The position numbers and the translations under genes were made by a program. A stretch of 64,000 bases of DNA from a virus. Lineage: Duplodnaviria > Caudoviricetes. Position 1 is the first letter of the stretch; each line of letters opens with the position of its first letter. Of this stretch, positions 22,678 to 45,093 are shown piece after piece. Under the pieces are notes generated by a model that was not told the DNA's origin, made no database searches, and worked only from the letters and a program-made list of their open reading frames with translations. The stretch covers positions 259,679 through 323,678 of the IMG/VR virus record IMGVR_UViG_3300043754_000129. The stretch is one strand, 5' to 3'.

Positions 22678-23880
22678 TTAACTAGACCAAGAAGTCTCGA
22701 TCTGAGACGGCTCAGCCAGCGTCGTTGTAATCGGGTCGCCCAGTACTTCCATCGTGACGGCTGTCACGGTAATAACCTGCTGCTTGTGCGTGAGCACTTG
22801 ACCGGCAATAGCTCTGGCAGTCGAACCGGTAATGGGTTTGACAATCAGGAACGATTGAATGCCCTTGGTGGTCAGTCCACCCGAGGCGCGAATCATGATC
22901 GAGGTGTTCACCGCGTACGACTGCATCATGGGCTTCGGTTTCAGGATCACCTGTGCGGTCGTTGCGAAGTTCATCATCCCCGTCACGCCACTACCGTTAC
23001 AGAGCACCTGGCCTCGGATCGCCATCGCTTTGGCACTGGGCTTTTGTTGAGTCAGCACCTGACCCTTAATCGCCATGGCCTTTGCGGTCTTGACCCCTGA
23101 GACCATCACCTGACCTGCCACCCCTTGCAGTGTTGCCGAAGGCGGCATGGTCGCCAGTACCTGAGCCTGCACGTTCTGCACTATCAGCTTGCTCGGGACA
23201 GCAACCAACACCTGCCCGCCCGTACCCAGGGAGCTTGCACTGCGATACCCGTTGGATACCAGCACCTGCCCGCCGATCGCCTGTGTCTGGGTGGAAGGCG
23301 GAGACGCTGCCACCACCTGACCCGTCACGGCTTGCACCGTCAGACTCCGTGCTGTCTTCAGAGTCGTGAGGATCTGACCCGTGATAGCACGCGCTACTGC
23401 CGAGCTCTTCTGGGTCGCCACCACTTGACCAGTGACTGCCTGCACAGTGATCTTGGGAGCAGGGGCCGCGATGAGGACCTGGCCACCAATGGCCGAAGAC
23501 TGCGCCGCCGTGAGCGTACTGCCCACAAGCACCTGACCACCAACACCAGCGAGAGAGGACGACGGGATACCACCCGCGAGTGCTTGCGCCTGCACATTCA
23601 CCACCGTGAGCGCTGCCTTCTTCGAGAGCAGTACCTGTCCGCCAATCCCCTTCGCACCCACGGGCTGAGGTGGTAAGCCCACCATCACCTGTGCCTGCAC
23701 GGACTGTGCTTTCAACCCCGGAATAGCGGTTGTCATCACTTGCGCGCGAACCGATTGCGCTTTGAGTCCGGGCAGGGTGCCTACCATTACCTGACCACGC
23801 ACAGCTTGAGCCGTCATCGCGGGTTTGCTACCAACCAACGCTTGCCCGCGTACAGCTTGTACCTGAATGCTCGTAGTCAC
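22678..23880 (-). CDS. Repeat protein with about 22 tandem 17-18-aa beta repeats; putative fibre shaft
   Basis: Recurrent (A/Q)(V/I)xGQV(L/M) unit along the whole length, ending TAVTMEVLGD. Confidence 0.8.
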   Translation of the reverse strand: MTTSIQVQAVRGQALVGSKPAMTAQAVRGQVMVGTLPGLKAQSVRAQVMTTAIPGLKAQSVQAQVMVGLPPQPVGAKGIGGQVLLSKKAALTVVNVQAQALAGGIPSSSLAGVGGQVLVGSTLTAAQSSAIGGQVLIAAPAPKITVQAVTGQVVATQKSSAVARAITGQILTTLKTARSLTVQAVTGQVVAASPPSTQTQAIGGQVLVSNGYRSASSLGTGGQVLVAVPSKLIVQNVQAQVLATMPPSATLQGVAGQVMVSGVKTAKAMAIKGQVLTQQKPSAKAMAIRGQVLCNGSGVTGMMNFATTAQVILKPKPMMQSYAVNTSIMIRASGGLTTKGIQSFLIVKPITGSTARAIAGQVLTHKQQVITVTAVTMEVLGDPITTTLAEPSQIETSWSS

Positions 23881-23891: not shown

Positions 23892-26213
23892 TTAGGTCGT
23901 CTTAGTGACCGACACTTTCATCGATTGAAGTCCGGCCGCGGTCCACGCAGCACCCGTATTCGGATCAGTCGTCTGAATCAACTGACTGTATCCGGTTTGG
24001 AAACCTGTGCCCGCACCTTGCGAGCCCTGGACACTCTTCGTGCCACTCACCACCCCTACCGCGCCGTTAGCACCCGCGCCCGAGTACTTTGCAAAGTAGC
24101 CTTCCACGATCACAGCCTGCACCCGGTAGTTGGCCGGGATAGTCGGGTTCGTATTGAAGACGTCCGTCTGCCCTTGCGTGGCACTGTAGATCGAGCCTTC
24201 CGAATTGGAAAGCGTGGTGTTCACAATACTTGCATGCGAGCCCGCATTGGACGTCGAGAACTGCGTACTCGAATCGCCATTGAGCGGATCAGGGATGATG
24301 TTAATCGTTCCCTGCTGCCCGTACGCACCTGTCGGGTCGTTCGTCATGTTGGTCGTGTACATATCGTCCACAACCGTGAACTGACCGTTACGCGGCAGGT
24401 TCAGGTAGAGACCCGTGACACCCGTGTCCCCGGAAGGCGCGAGCTGCACTGGACTGCCCCCATTGAGCGGGCCAATGATCGACGTGTCAATCGCCCACTG
24501 CACCGTGAACTGATTGGGCTGCCCCGCCACCGAGGTGAAGATCAGTTCGTAGTAGTGAGTCAGCCCGGAAGCGATCGGCACGTTCTGTGCGCTACCCTGC
24601 GCAGTGGCCGAACCACTCCCTGGTGCCAGGTATGCCGAAACCGGCCGGTAGGTGTTGTTCCCGCTACCTGCCACCGCCCCCGGCATGATGCCTGCCCCCA
24701 CGCTTTGACCAGTGGCGTTGTTCCACGGCACGAAGCTACCGTTGGATTGCGTGCCACCGTAGACACCCAGAAGCGATGCAGTGCCTGCGACCGTTTGCTC
24801 GGTGTAGTCCGGGTAGTACAGTGGCGTCCACGCAATACCGTCAGGTGAGACCGCAAGCACGGCGTTACTCAGACAGCCCGTCAAGACAAAGCGCAGGCCA
24901 TCCCAGAACACCCCGGTGAAGGTGGAACCGCCCGATCCCGACCACAAGAAGCGATCGGACTTCGACCACGTGGCCCCGTCCTTCGAAGTCCACAGACAAC
25001 CGTTACCCGTGAGAGGGTCACTACCAACGGCCACCGCGATGGAGCCATTACAGTCCACCGAAGTCACCACGCCGGCGCCCACATTGAGCGGCTGTGCCCA
25101 CACACCCGTAGTCGGACACTGGATACTGCTCGGCGTGCCCGGATTGGCGATGGTGTAAATGCCGCCGTAACCCACCGAGATCCACACGTTACCACCCGCG
25201 AAGTAGCAGATGTCCAACTGCGTGGCCGGGATCGTCGAGCTATACAGCTGTTGCAACGACGTAATCGGCGTCATCGCCCATTGCGTGGTCTTCGCCTGCT
25301 GGGCATACGGCATCGCCTCACCGGACGTGGGCGAGAAGCCCGTCAAGCAGGCCCAGCCCGACTTGGTGCGACCGATCGAGTACCATTGCCGATTCGACGT
25401 GTTCGTGACGGCCGTCGTGCCCGAGTAGTACGTTGCGCCCCAGACCGTGTAGCCGGAACCCACAGCCGGAACAAAGCCCGGAATCAGCACCCAGCCGTTT
25501 GCATTGGTCGGCGGATAGGCAAAGAACTCATAGCCGCTCGGCGCGCCAGGCAAAGGCGTAATCGCTCCCACGCCGATGTACGAGTTCCAGTTCGTGGTGT
25601 TCAACATGACGGTCCACGACACGCCACCGTTGGTCGAGCCATAGCCCGCCATCACGAACTGACCCGTACCGATACCCGTGTTGTTCTGAAACACCACGAT
25701 GGCAGCATTCGCCCCCGAGCCATACACTGCAATGCTCGAATACGGCGAGATGGCAGCAGGCTGGGCCTGGGTGAGGGTCCAGTTCTGCAAATCGGTGGAA
25801 TGCACCACCACACCCGTCGTGCCGTTCAAGACTGCCACAGCCCAGTAGGTGCCCGCACCATCGTACTGAATCTGGTTACAGTAGTACGGGGCGACTTCCA
25901 ACTGACTCACTTTGTTAAATGTAGCGGCCACGCCCACTGCGAAACCACCGCTTTGCCACGCGGCGTACACACTCTGATTGAGCGCATTCATTCCGAAGTC
26001 AGGCGCGTTCGCCGTTGCCATCGGCAACGCCGCGCTGTTCGAGTACGGACCCTTCAACATCAGGCCCGTGCCAGGAACACCAGTGCGCGACGGAACGCCG
26101 ACTACCGTATTGCCGTTGATGGTGATGGACTGTGACGTCATCCATCCCTTCGCGGCAGTCAGGTCGCTTTGATCGAATGTTGCCTCAAAGCCTTCCGCCA
26201 TCACTAAAGACAT
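23892..26213 (-). CDS. Virion fibre/adhesin paralog 6 (split beta-sandwich with Asp-box propeller insert)
   Basis: AEGFE N-terminus, Asp-boxes (STDLQNW, SKDGATW, SPDGIAW), NLPRNG..VVDD, DPNTGAAWT C-terminus. Confidence 0.8.
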   Translation of the reverse strand: MSLVMAEGFEATFDQSDLTAAKGWMTSQSITINGNTVVGVPSRTGVPGTGLMLKGPYSNSAALPMATANAPDFGMNALNQSVYAAWQSGGFAVGVAATFNKVSQLEVAPYYCNQIQYDGAGTYWAVAVLNGTTGVVVHSTDLQNWTLTQAQPAAISPYSSIAVYGSGANAAIVVFQNNTGIGTGQFVMAGYGSTNGGVSWTVMLNTTNWNSYIGVGAITPLPGAPSGYEFFAYPPTNANGWVLIPGFVPAVGSGYTVWGATYYSGTTAVTNTSNRQWYSIGRTKSGWACLTGFSPTSGEAMPYAQQAKTTQWAMTPITSLQQLYSSTIPATQLDICYFAGGNVWISVGYGGIYTIANPGTPSSIQCPTTGVWAQPLNVGAGVVTSVDCNGSIAVAVGSDPLTGNGCLWTSKDGATWSKSDRFLWSGSGGSTFTGVFWDGLRFVLTGCLSNAVLAVSPDGIAWTPLYYPDYTEQTVAGTASLLGVYGGTQSNGSFVPWNNATGQSVGAGIMPGAVAGSGNNTYRPVSAYLAPGSGSATAQGSAQNVPIASGLTHYYELIFTSVAGQPNQFTVQWAIDTSIIGPLNGGSPVQLAPSGDTGVTGLYLNLPRNGQFTVVDDMYTTNMTNDPTGAYGQQGTINIIPDPLNGDSSTQFSTSNAGSHASIVNTTLSNSEGSIYSATQGQTDVFNTNPTIPANYRVQAVIVEGYFAKYSGAGANGAVGVVSGTKSVQGSQGAGTGFQTGYSQLIQTTDPNTGAAWTAAGLQSMKVSVTKTT

Positions 26214-26222
26214 ACGTACCTC

Positions 26223-28535
26223 TTAGTTGATCTTGTTCGCCACCACATTCAAGGCGTTCAAGCCCGCTGCGGTCCAGGCCGCGCCAGTGTTCGGGTCGAC
26301 CTGCGAGAGCGCAGCCGAGAAGAGTGGCGTCGCACTGTTGGCAGCCACTGTGTTACCCGCGACCACCTGACCGTTGCTGCTCATCTGAATCTGGCAGTTC
26401 GCACCGATCGGACCGTAAGCGGCGAAGAAGCCTTCGACCTGCACGGCATTGATCTTGTAACTTGCCGGCACGGTGTTGCTCGTGCTGTAGGTGTCCTTCA
26501 CCCCCGGCGTGCTGGAGTACACGTAACCCTCGGAGTTCGAGAGCGGCGTATTCACCGTCTTCGCATTGGTGTTGCCATTGATGCTGTTGGTGAGTTGATC
26601 GCTCACGTCGCCCGCAAGAGCCAGCGGCATCACGACTTGGGGGCCCAGTTGACCCACACCGATCGTCCCGGCGAAGTTCGTGAGATAGATGTCGTCGATC
26701 ATCACGAAGTTACCAGTCTGCGGCAAGTTGAACAGCAGGCGCGAAGCACCCGTCGTGTCCGTGGTGGCCGCGAACTGCGCCGTTTGCGTACCCGGCAGGA
26801 CCACGCCGTTGATGGCGTACTGCACCGTGAACTGGTTCGTCGTACCCGGGACCGCGGTTGCGATGATCTCGTAGTAGTTCGTCAGATTACCCGTACACGG
26901 GATGTTCTGCGCAGCATTGGCTACGTTGGTCAGCGTCATGCCGGTCGTGGCGCCCGCGAGCGCAATCCCCTGCACCGTACGCGTGATCACGTTCAGACCT
27001 TGGGTCGCTGCACCCACCGTGAAGCCCAGGCCCGAAGCGAAGCCTGCGGTTGTGGCCGTGCTCCACGGCACGAACGAACCCGCATTCGACGTCGACGAGG
27101 TCGTGTCCAGATACGTACCAGCGGTCAGCGTACCCGAGTAGACGCCCGCCACGTTACCACTGGTCGTGCCGGCGGCTTCCGTGTAGTCCGGGTAGTAGAG
27201 CGCGTTCCACGCAATGCCGTCGGTCGACACCGCGATCACGTTGTTGTTCAAACCACCCGTGAGCACGAAGCGGTGACCGTCCCAGAAGACGTTCGTGAAC
27301 GTGTTGTTCTGCACGGCGCTCGGCTCTTGGAAGAGGAAGCGATCCACCTTCGTCCAACTCGTACCGTTGTTCGTGTAGTAGATGGCCGAGGCATTCGTCA
27401 CGGCATCGTGACCCACAGCAACCGCCACCGTACCTGCCGTATTCACATCGCAGCTGAACACCGCAGCGCTCGCTACCTGCACCACGTTCGACCAAGCGGC
27501 CGTCGGTCCGAGCACGTTACCGACCGTCCCCGATTGCGTGGCGATATAGATACCACCGTAACCCACCGCCACCCAGTAGCCGTTGATGTAGGTCATGTCG
27601 GCAATCTGGAAGCCCGGCAGTGAGCTGCCCGCCGTCCAGTTCGCGGCGGTCGCGATCCCCGAGTTGTTCGCCTGAATCCACGAGAAGTACGTGTTGACGG
27701 CGCCGTTGATGGTGGTCAGGGCCGTACCTGTCGTCCCCCAAGTCATCACGACGCCATTGACGAGCTTCGCAGCACCTGTTGAGTTCGCACCCGTGGCGAC
27801 CAGCTGCGTCGCACTGATGGCCGTGAATGCCAGCGCGCTCGAGAGCAAGCCTACGCCCAGACCCGTGCCGCTCGAATACGGCAGGATGAAGGGTGCAGCA
27901 CTGTTGCCCGTGGCGATCAAGTACTTCGGGTTGGTGATGGCGGCCGAAGTCGTCCACGTCAGACCCATATTGGTCGTGTAGTAGATGGCATTGGCCAAGC
28001 TGTTCATGCTGTTCGACACGATCACCGTCGCGCTCGAACCCGAACCCGAGATCGTGATGGTCGACTGTTGGGCGATGTTGGTGGGCTGCGTCGGGCACTG
28101 AATCCAGTTCTGGAGATCCGACGAATAGCACACCACGTAGGTCGCAGCATTCAGACAGATCGCCCAGTAATACGTGCTGCCATCGTAACGAATCTGCTGC
28201 GGGTTGCTCGGCGCCACTTGCAGCTGAATCGTCTTGTTGAACGTGGCATTGAAGCCGATGGAGAAACCACCCGCTTGCCAGAGCGAATAGATCGACTGGC
28301 CCAGATCCTTCAAACCGAAGTCCGGGTTACCCGAGTTCGGTGCGTAGGTGAGCGAGGCCGTCGTGTACGGACCACGCAGCATCAGCCCGATGGTGTTGGC
28401 CACGCCGTTACGTGCGGGCAGCGGCAGTACGTTCTGACCGCTCAAGCTCGCAGTCTGGTCGAGATCCCAGCCGCGGTAAACCACATCGGTTTCATCCGCG
28501 CACGTCTCGAACCCTTCGAAATACAAAACAGACAT
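26223..28535 (-). CDS. Virion fibre/adhesin paralog 5
   Basis: FEGFE start, SSDLQNW, TNNGTSW, STDGIAW, DPNTGAAWTAAGL. Confidence 0.8.
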   Translation of the reverse strand: MSVLYFEGFETCADETDVVYRGWDLDQTASLSGQNVLPLPARNGVANTIGLMLRGPYTTASLTYAPNSGNPDFGLKDLGQSIYSLWQAGGFSIGFNATFNKTIQLQVAPSNPQQIRYDGSTYYWAICLNAATYVVCYSSDLQNWIQCPTQPTNIAQQSTITISGSGSSATVIVSNSMNSLANAIYYTTNMGLTWTTSAAITNPKYLIATGNSAAPFILPYSSGTGLGVGLLSSALAFTAISATQLVATGANSTGAAKLVNGVVMTWGTTGTALTTINGAVNTYFSWIQANNSGIATAANWTAGSSLPGFQIADMTYINGYWVAVGYGGIYIATQSGTVGNVLGPTAAWSNVVQVASAAVFSCDVNTAGTVAVAVGHDAVTNASAIYYTNNGTSWTKVDRFLFQEPSAVQNNTFTNVFWDGHRFVLTGGLNNNVIAVSTDGIAWNALYYPDYTEAAGTTSGNVAGVYSGTLTAGTYLDTTSSTSNAGSFVPWSTATTAGFASGLGFTVGAATQGLNVITRTVQGIALAGATTGMTLTNVANAAQNIPCTGNLTNYYEIIATAVPGTTNQFTVQYAINGVVLPGTQTAQFAATTDTTGASRLLFNLPQTGNFVMIDDIYLTNFAGTIGVGQLGPQVVMPLALAGDVSDQLTNSINGNTNAKTVNTPLSNSEGYVYSSTPGVKDTYSTSNTVPASYKINAVQVEGFFAAYGPIGANCQIQMSSNGQVVAGNTVAANSATPLFSAALSQVDPNTGAAWTAAGLNALNVVANKIN

Positions 28536-28547
28536 GTTGATCTCACT

Positions 28548-30821
28548 TTAAGAAGTCTTTGCGACGACGATATCCACAGCATTTAAGCCAGAATTCGTCC
28601 AAGGCGCATTGGTGTTCGGATCAAGCTCGACAAGTGCGATTGCACGCGTGGGCGCCCCCGAGGTTGTGAGGCTCGTGCCCAGCGATTGCTTGCCATTGCT
28701 TTGCACGCCAATCTGCCCCGTGGAAGGCGAAGACCCGTTGTAGGTCGCCAGAAACCCTTCCATCTGCACCGCGTTGATACTCACCCCAGAAGACGGCACT
28801 GCGTTTGTCGTCCCATAGATGTCTTGCGCGGTGGTGGCAGTCGAATACACATACCCTTCCGCGTTGGAGAGCTCGGCGTTGACCGTGTTGGAGTTGGTCG
28901 CGCCATTGTTACTCGTGGTCAGCTGATCGCTCACATCCGAGCTTGCAATGATCGGGTAGATGCGCTGCGTGCCCAGTCGACCATTGTGATACGCCCCCGA
29001 GAAGTTCGTCAGGTAGATGTCGTCCACCTGGGTGAAACAGCCCGAGCGCGGCAGATTCAGGAAGGCCTGAGAAGCACCCGTCGTATCGGTGGTAGCCGCC
29101 ATCTGCAACTGACCCACCAGTGTCCCCACACTCACGCCATCGATCAGCGCGACGACGTTAAAGAGGTTAGGCGTACCCGCTACAGCCGTGAACACCAACT
29201 CGTAGTAATGCGAGAGCGTGGCAGGAGGCTGTGCACCCAACGCAGCCGCGACGGCCGAAACACTCAGACTCGAGCCATTCACCAAGGCATTCGCTGTGAC
29301 AGCGGCAGCGGTGACAGTGCGCGCCCCACCCGACGACGTCGAGCACGTGAAGCCTGCCCCCGAGCTATTGCCAGCCGCTGTGCCCCACGGCGTAAAGATC
29401 CCGGTCGACGGACTCTGCGTACCAGTGAACACACCCAGGAACGCCATGCTGGTTGTACCGGTTGAGGCTTCAGCATAATCCGTCGCACTGATGACGTACC
29501 ACGAAATCCCATCCGTGGAAGTCGCCACCACGTTACTGTTCAGACCACCCGTGGCAATGAAGCGTGTTCCATCCCACGTCACACTGGTGAGGACTGCACT
29601 GGACGTTGCCGCAGCACCGTTGAAGATAAACCGGTTAGCCTTCGTCCAGGTCGTTCCGTTCGTGCTCGTCCAGATGGCGCCACTGCCGGCCACGCTGGGA
29701 TCAGTGCCGACGGCGACCGCAACGGTGCCATTGGTGGCGATCGCAGAGACCACGTTCGTGCTACTGCTCGCAAAACCCGTACCCAGTGTCCATGCGGATG
29801 CAGCCGTGTTGCTGTTGTACCAGAGCCCGCCATACCCCACGCCAATGACGTAGCCATTGAAGTAGATCAGATCGTTAAGCATCTGGGGGCTGGCCGCCAA
29901 CTGAATCCAGTTGCCCACAAGCGACGGATTGTTCGACGCCAGACAGGTCGTGACCTGCGAGACGTTCCCCGTGACTGGGAAGTTACCACCAGCCGACGTC
30001 TTCGAACCCGCGAGCATGATCAGGCCATTGGACTGCTTACCGATGGCGTAGATGAAGTTCGAGGGCGCCACCACGATTACTGGTGACGAGGCCACCAGAG
30101 TCTGCGAACCACTGACCGACGTGTAGAAGTAGAGCTTGTAGCCCACCGTGTTGACCCATGCCAGACCCACGAATGGAGCATTCGCGTTGGTGGTCGGAAT
30201 GACCGTACCCCAGTTGGCATTGACCTGATTCATGGCTGCCCAGGTACCGCCCATATTCGTCGAGTAGTACGTCTGGGAACCGGTCGAGAGCGACGCGGTG
30301 TTGTTCACCAAGATGGTCGCGCTGCTACCACTACCAGTCACACAGATCGAGGACGTGATGTTGATGGTTGCAGGTTGAGCCGTCGTCTGGGTCCAGTTCT
30401 TCAGATCGGTCGAGTACGCCACGACATAGGCGCTCCCAGTGTAACAGATGGCCCAGTAATTGGTCGCCCCGTCATAGACGAGCTGTCCCACATCACCGGG
30501 TGCTACCTGAAACGTGTTCAGGCTATTGAAGCTCGCGTTGATGCCGACTGCGAAGCCCCCTGCTTGCCACAGAGAGTACACGCTCTGATTGAGCGAGATC
30601 AACCCGAAGTCGGAGACCGCTGCTGAGTTACACGGCTGACCCGTGTTACCGCCATAGGGACCGCGCAAGAAGAGGCCGATGCCCGCGACACCCGTGCGAG
30701 AGGGGATCGGGATCACGCCCGCCCCCGACTGCGCTGCCGTGGTGCAGGTGAGCAGGCCCTTCTTGTTGACGTCCGTCTGGTCGGCTGAGGTTTCGAAACC
30801 TTCTACAAACAAAACCGACAT
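28548..30821 (-). CDS. Virion fibre/adhesin paralog 4
   Basis: VEGFE start, STDLKNW, STNGTTW, STDGISW, DPNTNAPWT. Confidence 0.8.
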   Translation of the reverse strand: MSVLFVEGFETSADQTDVNKKGLLTCTTAAQSGAGVIPIPSRTGVAGIGLFLRGPYGGNTGQPCNSAAVSDFGLISLNQSVYSLWQAGGFAVGINASFNSLNTFQVAPGDVGQLVYDGATNYWAICYTGSAYVVAYSTDLKNWTQTTAQPATINITSSICVTGSGSSATILVNNTASLSTGSQTYYSTNMGGTWAAMNQVNANWGTVIPTTNANAPFVGLAWVNTVGYKLYFYTSVSGSQTLVASSPVIVVAPSNFIYAIGKQSNGLIMLAGSKTSAGGNFPVTGNVSQVTTCLASNNPSLVGNWIQLAASPQMLNDLIYFNGYVIGVGYGGLWYNSNTAASAWTLGTGFASSSTNVVSAIATNGTVAVAVGTDPSVAGSGAIWTSTNGTTWTKANRFIFNGAAATSSAVLTSVTWDGTRFIATGGLNSNVVATSTDGISWYVISATDYAEASTGTTSMAFLGVFTGTQSPSTGIFTPWGTAAGNSSGAGFTCSTSSGGARTVTAAAVTANALVNGSSLSVSAVAAALGAQPPATLSHYYELVFTAVAGTPNLFNVVALIDGVSVGTLVGQLQMAATTDTTGASQAFLNLPRSGCFTQVDDIYLTNFSGAYHNGRLGTQRIYPIIASSDVSDQLTTSNNGATNSNTVNAELSNAEGYVYSTATTAQDIYGTTNAVPSSGVSINAVQMEGFLATYNGSSPSTGQIGVQSNGKQSLGTSLTTSGAPTRAIALVELDPNTNAPWTNSGLNAVDIVVAKTS

Positions 30822-30833
30822 GTTGATTCCTCT

Positions 30834-33098
30834 TTAAGAAGTCTTGCCCACCACGAGGTCCAGAGCAGCGGCAGCTGCGAGTGTCCAAGGCAGACCCGTA
30901 TTCGGATCCAATTCCACCAGGGCAATCGCGCGTGTTGGCGAGTTGTTCGTGGTGACGATACTACCCACCGCCTGATGGCCATTGCTTTGCAGCCCCACCT
31001 GGCCCTTGGACGACGTACCCGTACCATACGAGGAAAGGAACCCCTCCACCTGTACCGCGTTCACAGACGCGCCGCTCGATGGGGCACTCGACGTGATCCC
31101 GTAGATGTCTTGCACCACACCCGAAGTAGCGTAGACGTAGCCTTCGGAGTTCGACAGCGCTCCAGCCACTGCCGCATTGTTCGCACCACTCGAGGCCGTC
31201 AACTGATCCTGCACATCGGAACTCGCCACAGCCGGGTAGATATGCTGCGTCCCCAATCGGCTGTTGTGATACGTACCTTGGGCATTGGTCAGATAGATGT
31301 CATCGATGACCGTGAAGTTCCCGTTACGTGGCAGGTTAAAGAACAGCTGACTCAGGCCCGTGTCCGTAGGCGCGGCCAGCTGATAGTTCCCCATGTAACC
31401 CAGCACGGTGTTATCGATCACGGCTTGCACCGCAAACATGTTCGGCTGACCCGGCACGGGCGTGAACACCAACTCGTAGTAGTGCGAGAGGGTTGCCGGT
31501 GGCTGTTGACCACTGGTGGAGCCCACCGCAGAAACCGACGCACTCAGCGCGCTGTTGGCGATCGCCCCGGCGGTGACCGTAGTGGCCGTGACCGTGCGTG
31601 CACTGCTCGCTACAGCGGCTGCGGTAAAGCCCACAGCAGCCACGTTACCCGCGGCTACGCCCCATGGGGTGAACAGACCCGTCGCCGGATTTTGCGTGCC
31701 TGAGAACACACCCAGCAACGACATGCTGGCCGTCCCGGTTTGTTCGACATACTCCGGTGCATACAACACAGACCAACTGATACCGTCCGTGGAAGTCGCG
31801 ATGAAGTTGTTGTTCAAACCACCGGTCAAGATAAAGCGCGTGCCATCATAGATCACGCCCGGCAGCCAGCTACCGTTGGTGATGTTTGGCGAGTCAAGCA
31901 GAAAGCGATTGGCCTTGGTCCACGTCACGCCATCAGTCGACGTATAGATCCCGCCGGTCGATGTGGGATTAATCGAGTCCTGCCCTGCCGCCACCAGGAT
32001 CGTGCCATTCGTGGCGAGCGAGGACATGATGTACGTCCCCAACGAAAGCGACTGCGTCCAGGGACCAGCCGGTCCTTGTACCGCACCTGGCGTACCCAAC
32101 TGGGGCGAACTCCACACGCCACCCTGACCCGCCACGAACCACTTGTTATTGAAGAACGTGACGTCCGCCATCTGACCTGTGACCGACGTGATCGCCGACC
32201 AGTTCGCAGGCGTTGCCGGATTGTTGACGCTCAGACAGGAACTGAAGTACGACGTACCCGTCGTCGGATAGGTCGGGTTGCTCGGGGTGTTCGTCCCCAT
32301 GATGATGATAACGCCATTGACCAACTTGATCATGGAGTTACCATACGACACACCCGTCACCAACATCGGCGAGGTGAGTGCAGCACCCGCTGCCGAAGCC
32401 AGCGACGTGAACGGGAAGACCTTCCAGCCTGCGTTATACGACACCGAGATGTACGGCGTCGTGGCGTTACCCGTGTAGGCGTACGCGAAGTTGGAGTTTG
32501 TCACCGCCTGCGCAAACGCCGTCCAGGTACTCCCGAAATTCGTCGAGTAGTACGACAGCTCCGTCACGGAGCACGCCGAGCTACTGACAATGATCGTCGC
32601 GGACGAACCCGACCCCACCACCTGAATGCTGGAGTTCACCCCCACAAAGCCAGGCGCTGTTACCGGCGTCCAGTTCTTCAGGTCCGGGGAATACGCGACC
32701 CCATACGCCGTGCCGTTGTACGTGATGGCCCAGTAGTACTGAGCCCCATCGTAGACCATCTGACGCGGATAGGTCGAGGCAACCTGCAAGTAGTTCAAGC
32801 TATTGAAGCTTGCACACACGCCAATCGCAAACCCGCCCGCATTCCACAAGGCGTTCACCGACTGACCCAGATTGATCAGACCGAAGTCAGGTGTGCCGGT
32901 TGCACTACAGGGCAGGGCCGTGGCGTTGCTATAGGGACCACGCAACATCAGACCCGTGCCGGCGGCACCACTGCGACTCGGCAGTGGCAAGACACCCACC
33001 CCAGACAGAGCGCTCGAGGCGGCGGTGAGTAGACCTCGAGCATACACGTCCGGTTGATCGGCCGAGGTCTCGAAGCCTTCGCAAAATACAACACTCAT
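30834..33098 (-). CDS. Virion fibre/adhesin paralog 3
   Basis: CEGFE start, SPDLKNW, STDGVTW, STDGISW, DPNTGLPWT. Confidence 0.8.
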   Translation of the reverse strand: MSVVFCEGFETSADQPDVYARGLLTAASSALSGVGVLPLPSRSGAAGTGLMLRGPYSNATALPCSATGTPDFGLINLGQSVNALWNAGGFAIGVCASFNSLNYLQVASTYPRQMVYDGAQYYWAITYNGTAYGVAYSPDLKNWTPVTAPGFVGVNSSIQVVGSGSSATIIVSSSACSVTELSYYSTNFGSTWTAFAQAVTNSNFAYAYTGNATTPYISVSYNAGWKVFPFTSLASAAGAALTSPMLVTGVSYGNSMIKLVNGVIIIMGTNTPSNPTYPTTGTSYFSSCLSVNNPATPANWSAITSVTGQMADVTFFNNKWFVAGQGGVWSSPQLGTPGAVQGPAGPWTQSLSLGTYIMSSLATNGTILVAAGQDSINPTSTGGIYTSTDGVTWTKANRFLLDSPNITNGSWLPGVIYDGTRFILTGGLNNNFIATSTDGISWSVLYAPEYVEQTGTASMSLLGVFSGTQNPATGLFTPWGVAAGNVAAVGFTAAAVASSARTVTATTVTAGAIANSALSASVSAVGSTSGQQPPATLSHYYELVFTPVPGQPNMFAVQAVIDNTVLGYMGNYQLAAPTDTGLSQLFFNLPRNGNFTVIDDIYLTNAQGTYHNSRLGTQHIYPAVASSDVQDQLTASSGANNAAVAGALSNSEGYVYATSGVVQDIYGITSSAPSSGASVNAVQVEGFLSSYGTGTSSKGQVGLQSNGHQAVGSIVTTNNSPTRAIALVELDPNTGLPWTLAAAAALDLVVGKTS

Positions 33099-33106
33099 AC
33101 TGACCT

Positions 33107-35431
33107 CTAATTGGTTTTCGTGATCGTCAGTTCCAGCGCATTCAGGCCCGCGGCCGTGAACGCAGCATTGGTGTTCGGATCGGTTTCCATGAAGAGAGAC
33201 GCGCGACTATAGAGTCCCGCAGTGGGCGTGACCGAGTTACTCTGCTTTGACGCGGAGCCACTCACTACCCCCACCGTACCAGCAGGAGCCGGACCTGGAC
33301 CCTGTGCGCCCATCGCAGCATCAACTTGCAGTGCCCGCACATTGAACGTAGCCGGAACCGTGTTCGTCGTGTGATAGGTGTCTGCCTTGTTCTTCGTCGT
33401 GGCGTAGAGATAGTTCTCCGCATTGCCGAGCTCTGTCGCCACCGTCTGCGCATTCGTGAGCGTGCCACTGGTGTTGGAGAACCCAGGCGTACCGACCACC
33501 GTGGACGGATCAACAGCGAAGACACTCTGTGGTCCCAACCGTCCCACGTTATTCGCCCCGTTCATCGTGGTCAAGTAAATATCATCGATCACGTTGTAGT
33601 TGCCGTTTCGCGGTAAGTTAAAGAACAACTGCGTCACCCCCGTTGTATCGGCGGTTGGTGCGAGCTGCCACGGTCCGCCACTAAACGTCTCTACCGTCCC
33701 ATTGATCGCCCACTGCGCCGTGAACGCGTTGTTGGTCGCCGTCGGCGTGAAGATCAGTTCGTAGTAATTCGTGAGGGCTGTACCCGGTTGTTGACCGAGC
33801 GGGATTGCAGGGCACGGCAGCGTGATGTACTGCTGTGCGGCGTACTGCGCATTGGCATAACTGGCCCCCAGACCAATCTGACGCGTGGCACCAGAACCAG
33901 CAAACGCAACCAGTCCCAGCCCGTTGACATACGAAGCAGTAGACGCTGCGTTCCACGGTGTGAAGATGTTCGTGATTGGATTAACCGAGCCGAAGAACAC
34001 CCCTGCCATCCCTTGGGTGGCGGTACCCGCTTGCTCGGGATAATCCGTCACGTACTTGGTTTCCCAGGCCTTACCGTCAGGCGACACGACCACCATGCCG
34101 TTGTTCTCGCCACCTGTCATGACAAATTGCGCGCCGTCCCAGATCACATTGGTGAAGGTCGTCGTGGGCGCCATACCCGAGCTGCTGCCCGAATAGAAGA
34201 ACTGGTTCTGCTTCGTCCAGTTAATGCCATCCGTTGAGAGGTAGATCGCGCCAATCGACGGCGTTGCGTAGTCCTGTCCTGCCGCGATCAGAATCGAACC
34301 GTTGCTTGCCAGTGAGTAAATGCCCCACGTGTTGAAGGCACCTGCACCCTTGGCGTTCGTACTGTAGAAGCTCGGCGAGGGATTCCATTGTGTCGGATTC
34401 GCGAGTGGCGTGTAGTACACCCCACCGACACCGGCGACAACGATGTTGTTGTTAAAGATGATCACGTCACTGATCTGTCCCGGCAATGCATAACCGGTCG
34501 ACTTCCAGTTGGCGGCCACCGTCACGTCCGAGCCCACAGGACAGAAGGACACACCGTTGTTGGGATAGCCACCATTCAGGTTCGGCGTCACACCCCCGGC
34601 ACCCGAATAGCCCACGGCGAAGAAGTACTTCCCGTCACACTTACAGAAGCCCGCGTCATACGTCGCGTTGGGGATCGTGTTCACCGTGGTGAGGGGCACT
34701 ACCGCAGCCGTCATCGTGGGTGCAGTCACCGGGCAGATCGTGAGTGCCGTACCACTGATCTGGATGCTCAGGTAGGCGGCGTTCCCGTTGCCCGGCGGCA
34801 CCACGCAGGGTGCGCGGTAGTTACCCGAGCTATTCGTGGCGTTCCACGTCATGCCCATGTTGGTGGAGTAGACCGCAGCGGCGCCCGAATACGTCCCCGT
34901 GTTACCGACGATGATGGTCGCATTGATGCCCGAACCCACCACCGAGATCTGGCTGCCCTGATTGATACCCGGTGTGCTGAGCGGGATGTTCCAGTTTTGC
35001 AAGTCGCTGGAGTACGCAATGCCCCAGGCACCCGAGCTACTGTTCCGAGTGATCGCCCAGTAGTTGACTGCGCCGTCGTAGGCGAGCTGACACGCCCCAC
35101 CCGGTGCGATTTCCAGAAACTGCTGCGCGTTAAACGCCGCGCTAAAACCCACGACGAACCCACCTGCTTGCCAGAGTGCATTGATGCTCTGGCCCATGGG
35201 GATCAACCCGAAGTCCGTCCAGTTGGCGCCTGCCATCGGCTGCTGTGCCGTGAGTGTACTGTACGGACCGCGCAGATACAGCGCCTTACCAGGGTAGCCC
35301 GTGCGAGACGGGATCGCCTGGCTACACACGGAACCCAACGTGGGCGCCGCGTTTTGAATCAAGAGGCCTCGATTGATCAGGTCCATCTGGTCCAGAATCG
35401 CTTCGAAGCCTTCAGTGAAAAGTGCAGTCAT
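33107..35431 (-). CDS. Virion fibre/adhesin paralog 2
   Basis: TEGFE start, SSDLQNW, STDGINW, SPDGKAW, DPNTNAAFT. Confidence 0.8.
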   Translation of the reverse strand: MTALFTEGFEAILDQMDLINRGLLIQNAAPTLGSVCSQAIPSRTGYPGKALYLRGPYSTLTAQQPMAGANWTDFGLIPMGQSINALWQAGGFVVGFSAAFNAQQFLEIAPGGACQLAYDGAVNYWAITRNSSSGAWGIAYSSDLQNWNIPLSTPGINQGSQISVVGSGINATIIVGNTGTYSGAAAVYSTNMGMTWNATNSSGNYRAPCVVPPGNGNAAYLSIQISGTALTICPVTAPTMTAAVVPLTTVNTIPNATYDAGFCKCDGKYFFAVGYSGAGGVTPNLNGGYPNNGVSFCPVGSDVTVAANWKSTGYALPGQISDVIIFNNNIVVAGVGGVYYTPLANPTQWNPSPSFYSTNAKGAGAFNTWGIYSLASNGSILIAAGQDYATPSIGAIYLSTDGINWTKQNQFFYSGSSSGMAPTTTFTNVIWDGAQFVMTGGENNGMVVVSPDGKAWETKYVTDYPEQAGTATQGMAGVFFGSVNPITNIFTPWNAASTASYVNGLGLVAFAGSGATRQIGLGASYANAQYAAQQYITLPCPAIPLGQQPGTALTNYYELIFTPTATNNAFTAQWAINGTVETFSGGPWQLAPTADTTGVTQLFFNLPRNGNYNVIDDIYLTTMNGANNVGRLGPQSVFAVDPSTVVGTPGFSNTSGTLTNAQTVATELGNAENYLYATTKNKADTYHTTNTVPATFNVRALQVDAAMGAQGPGPAPAGTVGVVSGSASKQSNSVTPTAGLYSRASLFMETDPNTNAAFTAAGLNALELTITKTN

Positions 35432-35444
35432 CGTGGACCTACCC

Positions 35445-37817
35445 TTAAGTTGTTTTCGTCACCGTCACGTCCAGCGCGTTCAAATTCGCCAGCGTGAAGG
35501 CAGCACCCGTCTTGGGATCCGTTTCCGTGAGGACCGTGCTGCGTGCCGGCCAGCTCGCTTGTGGCGTCGTCGTGTTGTTGCTCAACACGCCCGTGCCTGC
35601 GGAGACTACGCTACCTTGCTTGGTTGCGGACCCACTCTTCAGCCCCACCGCACCCGCGACCCCCACGCCCTGACCCAGCTGACCGAAGTACGCCTCTGCC
35701 AACACAGCCACCACGTTGTAGTTCGACGGCACGACGTTGCTCGTACCGTACACATCCTGCGTGTTCTTCGTGGCGGTATAGACGTAGCCTTCCGAATTGG
35801 AGAGTTCGCTATTGACCGTCTGGGCGTTACTGTTGGCCGAGATGCTGTTGGTCATCCCACTCGTGAGAGCCGACACCATGGAGAGGTCAAAGATGTTCTG
35901 CGGACCCAAGCGGCCGCTCGCACCATGTCCGTCCATGTTCGTCAAGTAGATGTCATCAATCTGCACGAACGTCCCTTGACGCGGCAGATTGAAGAAGATC
36001 TGATTGACGCCCGTGGTATCGGTGGTCGGAGCAAACTGATACGCTGCACTGATCGCAGGCTGCACCACACCGTCAATGGCCCACTGGATCGTGAACGAGT
36101 TGACTGCGGCACCCGCCGTCAAGATCAGTTCGTAGTAGTGCGTGAGCGCTGAGCCCGGATTGTTCCCGGTAGGAATGGTCGGACAGGCAACCGTTGTGCC
36201 CCAGCCAGCGGTGTTCCCGACATCGGACAGTGCTGCGCCATTGCTGTAGTTCTGACACACCCCCACCTGACGCTGACCATTGGTCGGTGCGCCCGCCGAG
36301 ACACCCAGTCCATTGAAGAACGAGGTGTTCGCCGCCGTGTTCCAAGGCGAGAAGAGGTTCGCGGCGTAGTTCATCGTCCCCGAATAGAAGCCCGGGAAAC
36401 TCAGACTGGCCGCATCCACCTGCTCACCGTTGTCGTACACATACTGCACTTCCCAGGCGAGGCCGTCAGGGGAGGTGATGATCATGCTGTTGTTCACGCC
36501 ACCGGCCACCACCCACTGCTTGCCGTCCCACAGCACCATCGTGAAGGCGTTGAACGCCGTGTTCGCATTGGTGGCATTGAAGTAGATGTAGCGGTTTTGC
36601 TTCGTCCAGTTGATGCCGTCCTTAGACAGGTAGATCGCACCCAGTTGCACATTGATGGGATCTTGCCCCACTGCCATCAGCGTCGTGCCGTTGCTTGCGA
36701 TCGCGAAGATCGCGAAGTTGCCAGCCGTTACCGGTGCGTTGGTGTTGTAGAACCCGTTCGTCGGATACCACTGCGTTGGGTTGGCAATCGGACAGGTGTA
36801 AATACCACCGTAGCCCACTGCCACGAAGTTGCCATTGAAGACCAACAGGTCCATGATCTGGAAAGGCAGCGTTGCCGTCCTCGTCCAATTGGCGGCGACC
36901 GTTGGATCCGCACTCGTCGAACAGAACGCAATCCCGCTCGTGCACCCCGAACTCGGTCCCCACTGACTCGACCCACCCGTGAAGGCGATTGCACAGATAT
37001 AGTTGCCCACCTGTTTGCAGTATGCGCCTTCTGTGGATGAGGCAGGGGCGATCGCGCCTACCGCAGTCAGACTCACTGGCGTGCCCGTCCAGGTCGTGGA
37101 GTAAGCCGGCACGGGGGAACCGCTACCAGTGGCTGTGACCGTGACGTAGAGTGCGGTGGTCCCGTTCGCACCATTCACGTAGACGGGCGTCCGAAAGAGA
37201 GCGTTGCCAGTCATCGCATTCCAGGTCAACCCCATGTTGTTGGAATACTGAGAAGCGGGCGCACTGAAGTTGCTGCTGCTACCGACAATGATGATTGCCG
37301 TCGGTCCACTACCGGAGACCGTGATCGTGGAGTTCTGGTTGACGCTCGGCTGCGTAATCGGCAGGTTCCAGTTCTTCAAGTCCGTCGAGTACGCCACACC
37401 CCAGATCCAGGTGCTGCCATTGTAGTAATAGCAGATCGACCAGTAGTACTGCGCGCCGTCATAGACGAGCTGCTGCGATTCCCCGGCAGCCGGCTGAAGG
37501 TAGCAGCTGGAGTTAAAGCTTGCGCTGAAACCCACACAGAAGCCACCCGCCTGCCACAGGGAATAGATCGACTGACCCATCGGGATCATGCCGTAGTCGG
37601 TGTAGCCCGCACCACCCAAGGGCGCCACGCCCGAGATGCTGTAGCCTGCCGGACCCGAGCGCAGGAACCAGCCCTTGCCGGGATAGCCCGTGCGTGAGGG
37701 CGAAGGAAGCCCATTCGCGCCACCGATATTCGTCGTGACGTTCTGAATGAGACCCCGTGCGTACATGTCCGGCGTGTCCGCGACTGTTTCAAAGCCTTCT
37801 GCAAATAAAAGCGACAT
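35445..37817 (-). CDS. Virion fibre/adhesin paralog 1
   Basis: AEGFE start, STDLKNW, SKDGINW, SPDGLAW, DPKTGAAFT. Confidence 0.8.
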   Translation of the reverse strand: MSLLFAEGFETVADTPDMYARGLIQNVTTNIGGANGLPSPSRTGYPGKGWFLRSGPAGYSISGVAPLGGAGYTDYGMIPMGQSIYSLWQAGGFCVGFSASFNSSCYLQPAAGESQQLVYDGAQYYWSICYYYNGSTWIWGVAYSTDLKNWNLPITQPSVNQNSTITVSGSGPTAIIIVGSSSNFSAPASQYSNNMGLTWNAMTGNALFRTPVYVNGANGTTALYVTVTATGSGSPVPAYSTTWTGTPVSLTAVGAIAPASSTEGAYCKQVGNYICAIAFTGGSSQWGPSSGCTSGIAFCSTSADPTVAANWTRTATLPFQIMDLLVFNGNFVAVGYGGIYTCPIANPTQWYPTNGFYNTNAPVTAGNFAIFAIASNGTTLMAVGQDPINVQLGAIYLSKDGINWTKQNRYIYFNATNANTAFNAFTMVLWDGKQWVVAGGVNNSMIITSPDGLAWEVQYVYDNGEQVDAASLSFPGFYSGTMNYAANLFSPWNTAANTSFFNGLGVSAGAPTNGQRQVGVCQNYSNGAALSDVGNTAGWGTTVACPTIPTGNNPGSALTHYYELILTAGAAVNSFTIQWAIDGVVQPAISAAYQFAPTTDTTGVNQIFFNLPRQGTFVQIDDIYLTNMDGHGASGRLGPQNIFDLSMVSALTSGMTNSISANSNAQTVNSELSNSEGYVYTATKNTQDVYGTSNVVPSNYNVVAVLAEAYFGQLGQGVGVAGAVGLKSGSATKQGSVVSAGTGVLSNNTTTPQASWPARSTVLTETDPKTGAAFTLANLNALDVTVTKTT

Positions 37818-37826
37818 AGCCGTTTC

Positions 37827-38990
37827 TCAATTGTGCGTGAACTGCCCGAACGTCGCGGCTTCAATGCTCGCCTGCGTCCAGTGGTTGGTTCCGTCGTTCT
37901 CGCTGATGCCCACAAACATGCCCACCGAGTTGCCCACGTTCTGCGGACCGTTGTTATTCACGGCCATCGTGGTCTCTTGCCCACCCACGACTTGGGCTGG
38001 GGAGACTTGCAGGAGGTTACTCGATTGGCCCCGGTAGATGAGCGCCTTGATGCCCGTTTGGGCTTGTGGGGTCCAGTTGTAGTACTCGTAGGAGTCACCG
38101 CCTGTGGAACCCACACCGCCCGTGGTTTGATACGCCCCAATCGAATTCTGACCCGAGAGGTCCGTCACCGCTTGCCAGTCCGGCTCCGTGGTCATCGAGA
38201 AGAAGCCACTGTTGAACGCCGTCGCAGTTGCCTGCGCCATGGTGATCTGTTTCGGATGGTATTGCGGGAGAACTTCAGGAGTCAATGCCGTGGGGTTTGG
38301 CCAATTCGCATCAGCCGTGGATGCTGCATGGAGCACCATGTCATCCATGTACCATTCGCCCAAGGTGCCGTTGTAGACCTTGAGCATGTTCACTGTCTGG
38401 CCCGCAGCAAAGAGATCTGTGAGCCAGTTGATGGTCACGTCTTTCCAGATCGCCTTACCGTTGATACAGTAGGTCGCCAACAGTTTCCCTGTCGGGGTGA
38501 AGGAGAAGTAGATACCTACCCAGACCCAGGTGTTGGGTTTGACAGAGTAGAGATAGGGCTTGGTGCCCAGCCCCGAGACTTGACTCGGGAAGGCCAAGCT
38601 TTGCCCATAGAGCGTGGAGTACGACTGACCCAGAATCGGGAACGAGGGTGACGAGTTATTCGTACAGCCCATCGCCAGCATCGTATCGGTGCCCTGCGTC
38701 GTGAGACTACCCAGTCGGATGTAACCACAGAAGCCAAACGCTCCCGTGCCGCCCGCCTTGGTGTTGTTCCGCTGAAACGCTGCGGTGGATGGGACCACAT
38801 AGACCCACCCACAGCTATTCGTTGCCAGGGGCGGGACCCCCAGCGCATTACTGTTAAACAAACTGAACGTGGGCACAATCGCAGCGGTGTTATTCGTATT
38901 GAGTTGCACCCACGGATACACAGGAGACAACGCCCCTGCTGGATAGCGGTCGAAGCCCTCTGCTCCAACAATAAACTGAGGCGTTGCCAT
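37827..38990 (-). CDS. Short (about 387 aa) relative of the paralog family without the propeller; LamG/ConA-like
   Basis: AEGFD N-terminus, WYMDDMVL, HWTQASI C-terminus; no Asp-boxes; start MATPQ at 38990. Confidence 0.7.
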   Translation of the reverse strand: MATPQFIVGAEGFDRYPAGALSPVYPWVQLNTNNTAAIVPTFSLFNSNALGVPPLATNSCGWVYVVPSTAAFQRNNTKAGGTGAFGFCGYIRLGSLTTQGTDTMLAMGCTNNSSPSFPILGQSYSTLYGQSLAFPSQVSGLGTKPYLYSVKPNTWVWVGIYFSFTPTGKLLATYCINGKAIWKDVTINWLTDLFAAGQTVNMLKVYNGTLGEWYMDDMVLHAASTADANWPNPTALTPEVLPQYHPKQITMAQATATAFNSGFFSMTTEPDWQAVTDLSGQNSIGAYQTTGGVGSTGGDSYEYYNWTPQAQTGIKALIYRGQSSNLLQVSPAQVVGGQETTMAVNNNGPQNVGNSVGMFVGISENDGTNHWTQASIEAATFGQFTHN

Positions 38991-45000: not shown

Positions 45001-45093
45001 CAAGCCGCCATCTTCTTCAATCACCGGTGCCAGCGCCTCAATCGACGCGACCATGGCTTGAAGATTTCTATTCAGATCGTCAAGGACGCCCAT
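39007..45093 (-). CDS. Giant Ala/Ser/Thr-rich fibre protein (about 2028 aa)
   Basis: Ala-rich coiled-coil segments, 11 A..WA...V.G..YSA.YYA knuckles, 4 FLG..PT.D..G..L..GA.Y modules, small C-terminal beta domain; start MGVLDD at 45093. Confidence 0.85.
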   Translation of the reverse strand: MGVLDDLNRNLQAMVASIEALAPVIEEDGGLAGGNAAAAAATAAATSASQSATSAQTAATSAIAAGTQTAADVTAAAASATTAQNAATAAIGAETAAAASATNAAASDQDATQQATQAAASATAAAQSAAAALTDKNSADASATAAASSMNAAQTAAASAIALYNSWGQVFLGELPEDPTLDNQGNPLINGAMYLNITDNPNLMRIYIAGAWEDLDEGGQLATQAAQTAAQQAANSATNAATSAGNAADSAATSTTQATAAAASATDADTSATAAATSASAAAVSDTDAASQATAAAASATLAEAWASQSDGTVGGTTFYSAAYYAQEAVNAMDTIASQAVIAQTGSNSAAASANAASNSAASASTNATSASQSATAAAASAGNAQNSATSALNAMNSAQANATSAGISAAQANESNGMAQSYATSANNAASTAVANATVSTNAAALAEDWAIKLTGEVDGVDYSAKYWALAAQSADTDAQNQASTAMAQATAATTAATTATNAATDAQNWASSAALVDGTDYSAKYWAGQASNSAAAANTSAASITGQATAAAQSATLAQAWASGSGTIGGTTSYSAQYYAMQAQSADTDAQTQAANAATSATDAAASATTASGAVTTVQAVMAAFNQLFLGTFSTPPTHDNQGGALVNGAEYLDSSQTPAVLMAWDGTQWAVASTGGSSNNATLAASQAAASASQASAAATAAQTSQTNAATSATNAASSATNAGTSATTAGAAATAAAGSATSAAAADADSQTQATNAAASATNAASSASAASASAGTASSAATLAQNWASQPVGYVNGTTYNSAFVYATAAQAAASTASAAQNASATSATLAQAWASQTTGVVNGSQYYSSYYYANQASLSATTCTNAASNAQSAMTAANASATAAGTSATNAATSESNAAASAVTATQKANSASTSATNAAASASSAAGYDTDAQLQATNAEASATTAQNSAAAAQTAATNATSAATGLANAQTAAAASATAAATSASAAAASATAAATSATNAATDATQAAASAAAAAESAANSGTGSGVSLAQVQAIEAQLNAMLTSFGAAWLGDQDTFPTVDLNGNPLVEGASFLYTGVTPYELFVYVGGVWTPTNEDALAASTSATLAASQAAASATAAGQSSALASSAAANALTYMDGANTALTGAQAADTDATTQATNAAASASSAGDAATAAAASATLAQAWATENDSNVNGSGQGSALYYAGLAQGYYSSITSLNTTAATSASSAAASATAAAASLTQLNNQVTLAQSAATSAQGQANNAQSSATAAAGSATTANNSAASAATSASAAANSATTASNNASSASASNTAAQAAATSSENYAAQAQSYLNTANANVANVSQYATLAQNWASQTTGVVNGTSYYSAYYYAQAALTTYNNTVNAAATVTTSTTAATTAATNAATSAALAQSWAAQGSGFVNGTTSYSAAYYAGQAATSATNGATSATNSAASATLAQAWATQATGVVGTSSLYSAYWYANQAALSSSTATTQAGNASASATAAAASATSAQTSANNAATSYAQTQAVIASFSSAWLGAYSTPPTQTPTGGALTVGAQYEDISQNPPVIMTYYNGVWNAPSQSDQTASANVTIAATQAAASAATASTAATNAGNSATAAANSATAAATSETNAGNSATAAGTSASQASTSASAAAASDSDAQTQAENALASAATATSQATAASNSATLAQAWASQPAGVVNNTTYYSASYYATQASTQATNAGTQATNAASSATAAAASAAAAAALVAGPSGSANYYAQQASTAAGNANTSAGQAATSATAAATSASNAAASATQVLTGVNSAGSSATAAATSATNAANSASAAQTSANTANSAASAAGTSASTAAGSASDAAASATAAAASVPSAQSAATAAAASAAAAAASAASALQNARINMFVSGQNGGTVSQQWEQLFAETTVFQADWGVSSGSGSVGNCQFSQGTSALFNIYAYNLANPNGTLIAQITFTANGNTINSMASGTASFSTMNTSFTFNPGDMMIVVPQTTNVSAVAVAFRGAYPNA

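Follow-up and report, generated by a model that had tools for sequence, protein, structure and literature searches.

Six tandem tail-module genes of a jumbo phage with a predicted seven-bladed propeller nested in a jelly-roll scaffold

Introduction

Diversified arrays of receptor-binding proteins are a known theme in jumbo phages. Here, six adjacent paralogous genes and a shorter gene beside them were analysed in the IMG/VR virus record IMGVR_UViG_3300043754_000129 (Duplodnaviria; Caudoviricetes). The long proteins are predicted to consist of a seven-bladed beta-propeller nested in a lectin-like jelly roll. The window, that is, the whole 64,000-nucleotide stretch of DNA that was analysed, forms the last 64 kb of the record, which has 323,678 bp and was rated as complete by CheckV (100%). 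All coordinates are those of the window unless a record is named.

The nearest characterised system appears to be gp131-135 of phage phiKZ, as a partial analogue. In phiKZ, gp131 ends in a seven-bladed propeller that lies at the fibre tip, and the shared N-termini of the gp131-135 paralogs build a hetero-hexameric fibre base (PMC13250141). Both loci are tandem paralog sets in the tail module of a jumbo myophage with a seven-bladed propeller proposed to contact the host, and the paralogs of each set combine a conserved part with one that varies between them. The phiKZ proteins have an N-terminal anchor and helical bundle in common, and the propeller forms the C-terminal domain, whereas in the window the propeller is predicted to be nested and both termini are conserved. 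The N-terminus of the long copy was modelled as a beta-strand of the jelly roll, with no helical anchor. The propeller structure of gp131 is presumably PDB 4GBF. In our searches, gp131 gave no profile match at E ≤ 1 and was not among the fold matches listed, which were dominated by other propellers. An earlier note on this DNA, made by a model from the sequence alone, had named no characterised system with this layout. That stood for the domain order; tandem propeller paralogs as such, however, are characterised in phiKZ (PMC13250141).

Other known proteins share parts of the layout. Sialidases and members of glycoside hydrolase (GH) families 43 and 74 with a concanavalin A (ConA)-like domain combine the same two fold types with Asp-box motifs. 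Unlike the long proteins, they carry their domains in series and not nested, they differ in blade number and their catalytic residues are not conserved here. The K1F/phi92-type endosialidase, a phage tail protein, also nests a propeller and a lectin-like beta-barrel through the insertion of one domain into the other. The nesting is the reverse, with the barrel inserted in a six-bladed catalytic propeller, and the protein is a trimeric tailspike with an S74 chaperone domain. Viral two-domain proteins of about 325-356 amino acids (aa), which appear as ESM Atlas clusters and as phrog_2448/phrog_6368 and include VpV262 ORFO and a protein of phage AchV4, have the same fold as the short protein and as the long protein minus its propeller (template modelling score, TM, 0.78-0.85) but no propeller. 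The cultured members of phrog_30887, the family of the long proteins, are unlike the window in having one or two copies, not six. As far as was found, neither the nested architecture nor the long family is described in the literature searched: publications on phiRSL1, RsoM2USA and the BcepSauron homologs, the Matilda preprint and a comparative review of jumbo phages did not mention it. The phiRSL1 and Sarumanvirus jumbo phages infect Ralstonia and Burkholderia and are considered for biocontrol, and their host recognition is essentially undescribed.

Results and Discussion

Six long paralogs

The six open reading frames (ORFs) lie head to tail on the minus strand, from 37817 down to 23892, with spacings of 8-13 nt. 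Copy 1 (P0006; 35445..37817; 790 aa) adjoins the short gene. It is followed by copy 2 (P0005; 33107..35431; 774 aa), copy 3 (P0004; 30834..33098; 754 aa), copy 4 (P0003; 28548..30821; 757 aa), copy 5 (P0002; 26223..28535; 770 aa), which was the copy modelled, and copy 6 (P0001; 23892..26213; 773 aa), the last of the array. Aligned over their full length, the proteins share 35-45% pairwise identity. When copy 5 was searched against the phage's own genome, the other five were retrieved with E-values of 7e-112 to 4e-156, and nothing else. Their mutual likeness is far beyond chance. All six were assigned to phrog_30887, which carries a function-less annotation (E 9e-34 to 6e-59; profile positions 18-770 of 771). 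Copy 1 matched it over the full length at 1.2e-40, and copies 2, 3, 4 and 6 at 8.8e-34, 1.2e-51, 4.4e-57 and 9.3e-52, respectively. In Pfam and NCBIfam, no family exceeded the threshold for any of the seven proteins. This included Pfam Laminin_G, and single Pfam BNR repeats in the long copies stayed below threshold.

Several blocks are invariant or nearly so in the six copies: E7-G8-F9-E10, P..R.G...L..GPY...D.G..QS...W..GGF, YYE...T...N.F, NLP..G....DD.Y.T and DP.T....T. Four conserved sites carry Asp-box-like motifs, which are, in P0002 numbering, 138-144 (S.DL.NW), 188-194 (T.N.G.TW), 388-394 (S/T.[DN]G..W) and 437-443 (S.DG..W). The four positions (138, 188, 388, 437) are kept in 82-98% of the 66 full-length family members that an exhaustive profile search yielded for the alignment. 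Mean pairwise identity fell to 0.10-0.33 at alignment columns ~200-420, compared with 0.40-0.53 in the flanks. The earlier note had described six adjacent paralogs of 754-790 aa, the shared motif blocks and a strongly divergent centre, and each of these descriptions was confirmed. Nucleotide identity of the conserved blocks between copies is only 60-83%, which indicates that the duplications are old and that there was no recent gene conversion.

A seven-bladed propeller predicted in the long proteins

The AlphaFold2 model of copy 5 reached a predicted local distance difference test score (pLDDT) of 88.6 and a predicted TM (pTM) of 0.90. It was aligned all-against-all with 48,161 representatives of the PDB. 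Residues ~103-451 were modelled as a seven-bladed beta-propeller and matched Utp4, virginiamycin B lyase, GH74 and WD40 propellers at Z 21-23 over 270-295 residues (3.1-3.7 Å). A cluster of the ESM Atlas with PSII_BNR/DUF6242_C matched the propeller at TM 0.70-0.81, and Ycf48 gave a fold match with a TM-by-target of 0.61. Compared with solved chains of BNR/Asp-box proteins, the family profile matched GH74 6p2l (E 1.4e-10) and GH33 4fj6 (E 1.6e-4), followed by sortilin and Ycf48. The exhaustive profile search returned 74 proteins at E ≤ 1e-30 and a long tail of multi-repeat propeller proteins, the distant repeat matches of which carry Pfam DUF6242 or HVO_0234-type propeller domains. The seven-bladed fold match together with the profile match to solved BNR proteins identifies the insert, at the level of the prediction, as a BNR/Asp-box-type seven-bladed propeller.

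The predicted domains of copy 5 are all on the minus strand. An N-terminal jelly-roll segment comprises residues 1-102 (28230-28535) and the propeller residues 103-451 (27183-28229). The rest of the jelly roll follows with residues 452-625 (26661-27182) and a C-terminal beta-sandwich with residues 626-770 (26226-26660).

These matches bear on the explanation that the copies are depolymerases with a catalytic propeller, like GH33, GH43 or GH74 enzymes with an appended lectin domain. Among solved structures, Foldseek ranked highest GH43, GH74 and sialidases in which a propeller is combined with a ConA-like domain, the profile matched a GH74 and a GH33 chain, and distant propeller relatives showed weak NCBIfam 'glycosylhydrolase' matches. 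However, the enzyme matches span structural Asp-box blades only, and the non-enzymatic Ycf48 and sortilin match about equally well. In the alignment of 66 members, conservation in the propeller falls on the Asp-box positions and D118. The only Arg, Tyr or Glu conserved at ≥75% in the propeller is Y123, and no Arg triad, Tyr/Glu pair or other conserved acid pair was found there, so that a catalytic role is unsupported. The single seven-bladed propeller also differs from the six blades of GH33, the five of GH43 and the two propellers of GH74. As individual candidates, a GH33 sialidase was rejected on its blade number and on the missing Arg triad and Tyr/Glu pair, and a GH74 xyloglucanase, which has two tandem seven-bladed propellers and two catalytic Asp, was rejected since a single propeller is present here and the rest is beta-sandwich. 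The depolymerase role that the earlier note had offered as one option thus found no support and is improbable.

The short protein and the insertion site

The short gene (37827..38990, minus strand) encodes 387 aa and lies 9 nt upstream of copy 1. In the public gene call it starts two codons earlier (38996), giving 389 aa. Its translation contains GAEGFD, WYMDDMVLH and ENDGTNHWT and no Asp-box, which agrees with the EGFD start, DD block and WT end seen in the earlier note. The model, built with 16 homologs, had a pLDDT of 77.6. Residues ~3-249 were modelled as a ConA-like lectin/glucanase jelly roll, followed by a second beta-sandwich. At Z 12-14, the jelly roll matched GH131, calreticulin, sialidase lectin domains and the N-terminal half of clostridial neurotoxin binding domains, and also a mycobacteriophage baseplate protein and the receptor-binding domain of phage TM4.

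In the ESM Atlas, the short model (residues 5-386) matched the representatives of three viral clusters annotated as 'hypothetical protein', with lengths of 356 aa (107 members), 325 aa and 341 aa (72 members), at a TM-by-hit of 0.78-0.83. The long model matched the same 356-aa and 341-aa clusters, for which the short model gave TM 0.78-0.80, and another cluster of 341 aa. Its TM-by-hit was 0.82-0.85 with 321-342 residues aligned at 3.0-3.2 Å, drawn from query residues 1-769. The propeller makes up 349 of the 770 residues of copy 5, so that nearly all of the remaining N- and C-terminal parts superpose on the insert-less fold. Residues 1-102 and 452-770 were also folded as separate chains. Their N-terminal piece docked into 453-638 with ~390 contacts and an interface score (ipSAE) of 0.84, while the best of three controls scored 0.00. 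Of 80 solved complexes, 58 scored this high, as did 2 of 110 mismatched pairs; the counts are rough, as a custom alignment was used and both chains come from one protein. The residues most conserved outside the propeller (E10, D17, W86, G89-G90, Y554, E556, N567, F569 and D614-D615 in the 66 members) fit one discontinuous domain in the model. They may form a structural metal site, as in jelly-roll carbohydrate-binding modules.

Three independent lines agree that the propeller is, in the predicted structures, an insertion in the jelly roll of the scaffold, and the short protein is modelled as an insert-less protein with the same fold as the long scaffold. The structural part of the earlier interpretation, a propeller inserted in a beta-sandwich scaffold, is well supported at the level of predicted models, both by the propeller fold of the insert and by the joint superposition of the N- and C-terminal parts on insert-less viral proteins of 341-356 aa.

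Homology between the short protein and the termini of the paralogs, which the earlier note had also supposed, was borne out in part. The structures agree through the two common viral clusters, and there is moderate sequence similarity in the C-terminal ~200 residues. With hhalign, residues 168-382 of the short family aligned with 567-765 of the long family (E ~5e-5, probability 60-68%), covering the DD strand and the terminal D/N-G-x-x-W-T motif. For the N-terminal ~100 residues, local and global hhalign comparisons of the two families gave no signal, and the shared 'EGF[DE]' start alone is therefore no statistical evidence. BLASTP of the short protein against one long copy returned nothing. 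Profile phrog_2448 matched the C-terminal part of the long proteins (E 1e-10 to 1e-13). It was found in five of the six copies at E ≤ 0.1 in the protein scan and in all six in a six-frame search of the genome. Between the short protein and phrog_2448/phrog_6368-type proteins, no sequence relation was detectable with hidden Markov models.

Residues 462-770 of the long model matched a laminin G (LamG) domain model with TM 0.68. The C-terminal sandwich (626-770) resembles viral clusters whose proteins have 140-160 aa, as well as the ends of longer viral proteins (233-409 aa). A second tail-module protein of phage BCSR5 (L012, record positions 190015-190419) matched the short-family profile in its C-terminal sandwich only (E 3e-9), which suggests that the C-terminal sandwich is a mobile module in these phages.

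Relatives, copy number and history

The closest cultured relatives of the studied genes are found in BcepSauron/BcepSaruman, BCSR5, phiRSL1 and RsoM2USA, which are jumbo myophages of Burkholderia and Ralstonia. Their phrog_30887 members are phiRSL1 ORF183 and ORF184, RsoM2USA gp419 and gp421, gp279 of BcepSauron and BcepSaruman, and BCSR5 QRE00315, all of them annotated as hypothetical. In architecture and in position within the tail module, they agree with the window copies. Identities were 26-29%, with tblastn E-values of 2e-19 to 2e-28 for five full-length matches and family-profile E-values of 5e-70 to 4e-78. A DNA search of the phage collection with the whole array gave no match.

Copy number varied among the relatives. 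One long copy is present in BcepSauron/BcepSaruman and one in BCSR5, in each case with the short gene directly upstream (shown for BcepSauron in the first pair). Two long copies and no short gene were found in both phiRSL1 and RsoM2USA. Among the metagenomic relatives, all with the short gene directly upstream, one contig has two long copies, another has one and a candidate gene of matching size (759 aa), a 285-kb viral contig has three and a 320-kb contig has at least five. The window, with six, has the short gene in the same place. The gene order of fibre, short protein and a varying number of long copies thus recurs in BcepSauron, BCSR5 and four metagenomic relatives.

In the maximum likelihood tree, copy 1 of the 320-kb relative falls with window copies 1 and 2, its copies 2 and 3 fall with window copies 3 and 4, and its copy 4 pairs with window copy 5. 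The N-terminus of copy 6 resembles the partial fifth copy of that relative. Copies 1 and 2 are sisters, and copy 2 is an extra duplication relative to the 320-kb contig. Likewise, phiRSL1 ORF183 pairs with RsoM2USA gp419 and ORF184 with gp421, with 99-100 in the Shimodaira-Hasegawa-like approximate likelihood ratio test (SH-aLRT). These groupings indicate that the array grew stepwise and was inherited in order. The single six-fold amplification that the earlier note had envisaged does not fit these positional orthologs, nor relatives with 1, 1, 2, 2, 2, 3 and at least 5 copies.

Between orthologs, the middle part of the propeller, where the paralogs diverge most, is conserved as much as the rest of the protein or more. 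The proportion of nonsynonymous differences (pN) was far below that of synonymous differences (pS) in every region between orthologs, and the ratio of the corresponding substitution rates (dN/dS) was ~0.1-0.3, a rough value with dS near or beyond saturation. Positional orthologs that were kept and pN well below pS argue for an old, maintained array. Judged from these sequence comparisons, all six genes are maintained, each with a stable identity of its own.

This history can also be read to mean that the copies are non-equivalent subunits with fixed positions in one heteromeric tail or baseplate assembly, and not alternative receptor binders. The age of the array, the preserved gene order and positional orthologs, the conservation of the copy-specific region between phages and the purifying selection in every region all speak for such subunits, and gp131, gp133, gp134 and gp135 in the hetero-hexameric fibre base of phiKZ are a precedent (PMC13250141). 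However, fixed stoichiometric positions in a conserved machine are difficult to reconcile with a copy number that ranges from 1 to 6 among relatives with the same flanking genes. Moreover, the divergence lies in the propeller and not in the scaffold, which would make the subunit contacts. Fixed subunits, although the main alternative, are therefore considered unlikely.

Putative role in the tail-fibre apparatus

With a probability of roughly 0.6, the array encodes co-transcribed parts of the tail-fibre apparatus, namely non-enzymatic heads that bind the host surface and are built on a propeller-in-jelly-roll scaffold. A role in the tail and in adsorption is favoured by the gene context, by propeller fusions and by relatives of the scaffold, all of them indirect indications. 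Propellers of this type (DUF6242_C/PSII_BNR) are fused to siphovirus tail proteins with Sipho_tail and Sipho_Gp37 and to a fibre protein with an Mtd_N domain. Foldseek identified a 352-aa 'virion structural protein' of AchV4 as a remote relative of the scaffold (E 4.9e-12, TM-by-hit 0.55). In AchV4, every tail-module protein of that name was detected by liquid chromatography-tandem mass spectrometry (PMC7996906). VpV262 ORFO, another remote relative of the scaffold, adjoins a 'tail appendage' gene.

The following course of events is proposed. The scaffold, a ConA-like/LamG-like jelly roll with a smaller C-terminal sandwich, is widespread in phages as a protein of ~350 aa. In the long proteins, the jelly-roll loop after residue ~102 is predicted to carry the inserted seven-bladed BNR/Asp-box-type propeller. 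Stepwise duplication of the long gene within this lineage of phages raised the number of copies from one to six. They diverged mainly in the middle blades of the propeller, and each has since remained under purifying selection. The conserved scaffold would dock on a common virion partner, while copy-specific propeller faces would recognise different surface structures, probably glycans. One virion could thereby present several binding specificities.

Several points weigh against this proposal. As phiRSL1 and RsoM2USA carry long copies altogether without the short protein, the two are not obligate partners. No proteomic, structural or genetic datum was found that places any family member in the virion, and the two RsoM2USA copies were not reported from the virion gel of that phage, where the analysis covered only ten bands. 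The long proteins have no obvious N-terminal anchor or trimerising shaft. That orthologs conserve the middle of the propeller would agree with fixed structural roles as well as with fixed receptor specificities, and all structures used are predictions.

The lack of virion evidence for the family also speaks for copies that are non-virion parts or capsid-decorating, intracellular or secreted accessory lectins in a late operon, and ConA-like and Ig-like domains of phages are found as capsid decorations, too. The genes are, however, embedded between a fibre gene and other genes of the fibre module, and scaffold relatives are located in the tail modules of small phages. Neither a signal peptide nor a membrane segment was found in the six long copies. 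The number of promoter- or terminator-like sites inside the array did not exceed that in shuffled sequence, which fits a single transcription unit. Accessory lectins outside the tail are therefore very improbable.

The proposal of host-binding heads in the tail-fibre apparatus could be carried further. The giant coiled fibre, the short protein, the six long proteins and a rod made of xGQV repeats, all encoded together, might form a single multi-headed adhesion organelle with up to seven different lectin or propeller heads on a shared docking scaffold, and copy number would tune the number of heads. With the propeller nested in the jelly roll, ligand binding might be mechanically coupled to the docking domain, an arrangement that would act as a trigger sensor and not only as an adhesive tip. 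Such an organelle is a speculative and rather doubtful extension.

The analysis gives a family annotated as 'hypothetical' a concrete predicted architecture, a propeller nested in a jelly roll. It also provides an evolutionary series from one to six copies and names cultured relatives for functional work. Should the copies serve as alternative binding heads, counting them in a genome would be a simple way to read the breadth of host range, and the scaffold would be a natural chassis that tolerates an insertion of ~350 residues.

Gene neighbourhood

All genes of the array belong to one long minus-strand run of tail-fibre-type genes. Directly upstream of the short gene, an Ala/Ser/Thr-rich fibre protein of 2044 aa is encoded (39007..45141, minus strand), which matched phrog_38058 'tail fiber protein' (E 4e-58). 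It shares 52% identity over ~940 residues with the protein in the same position of the 285-kb relative and contains the recurring unit LAQ.WASQ..G.VNG..YYSA.YYA. In phiRSL1, ORF182 was considered as a counterpart and rejected, being unrelated to the short protein and to the 2044-aa fibre.

Directly downstream of copy 6, a 400-aa protein (22678..23880, minus strand) consists almost entirely of ~17-aa xGQV-type repeats. In the 285-kb relative, a 204-aa homolog of it follows the array (BLASTP E 1e-11), which indicates that the repeat protein belongs to the conserved module. Its gene is followed by a terminator-like hairpin of 14 pairs and then T7 (22551-22520, minus strand), which probably ends the transcription unit. 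The hairpin lies inside a 161-aa ORF (22169-22654). This ORF matched neither PHROG nor Pfam families and is perhaps not a gene.

Further upstream in the same minus-strand run, two adjacent proteins of ~200 aa (45259-45882 and 45870-46475, minus strand) matched Pfam C1q with E-values of 2e-10 and 5e-14. They represent C1q/TNF-like trimeric heads within a phage fibre module. A 384-aa fibre-like protein is also encoded in this part of the run. A tail-fibre protein of 1331 aa (48449-52444, minus strand) ends in a C-terminal Peptidase_S74 domain, the intramolecular endosialidase-type chaperone. In one relative, locus L015 comprises four consecutive genes with S74.

IMG/VR classed the record as 'provirus', which contrasts with the lytic jumbo myophages related to it and with the CheckV rating of 100% complete and is possibly an artefact. 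On the other side of the hairpin, a 428-aa ORF (19848-21134, minus strand) showed weak matches to CAP (cysteine-rich secretory protein family) and Big_5, both under the Pfam thresholds.

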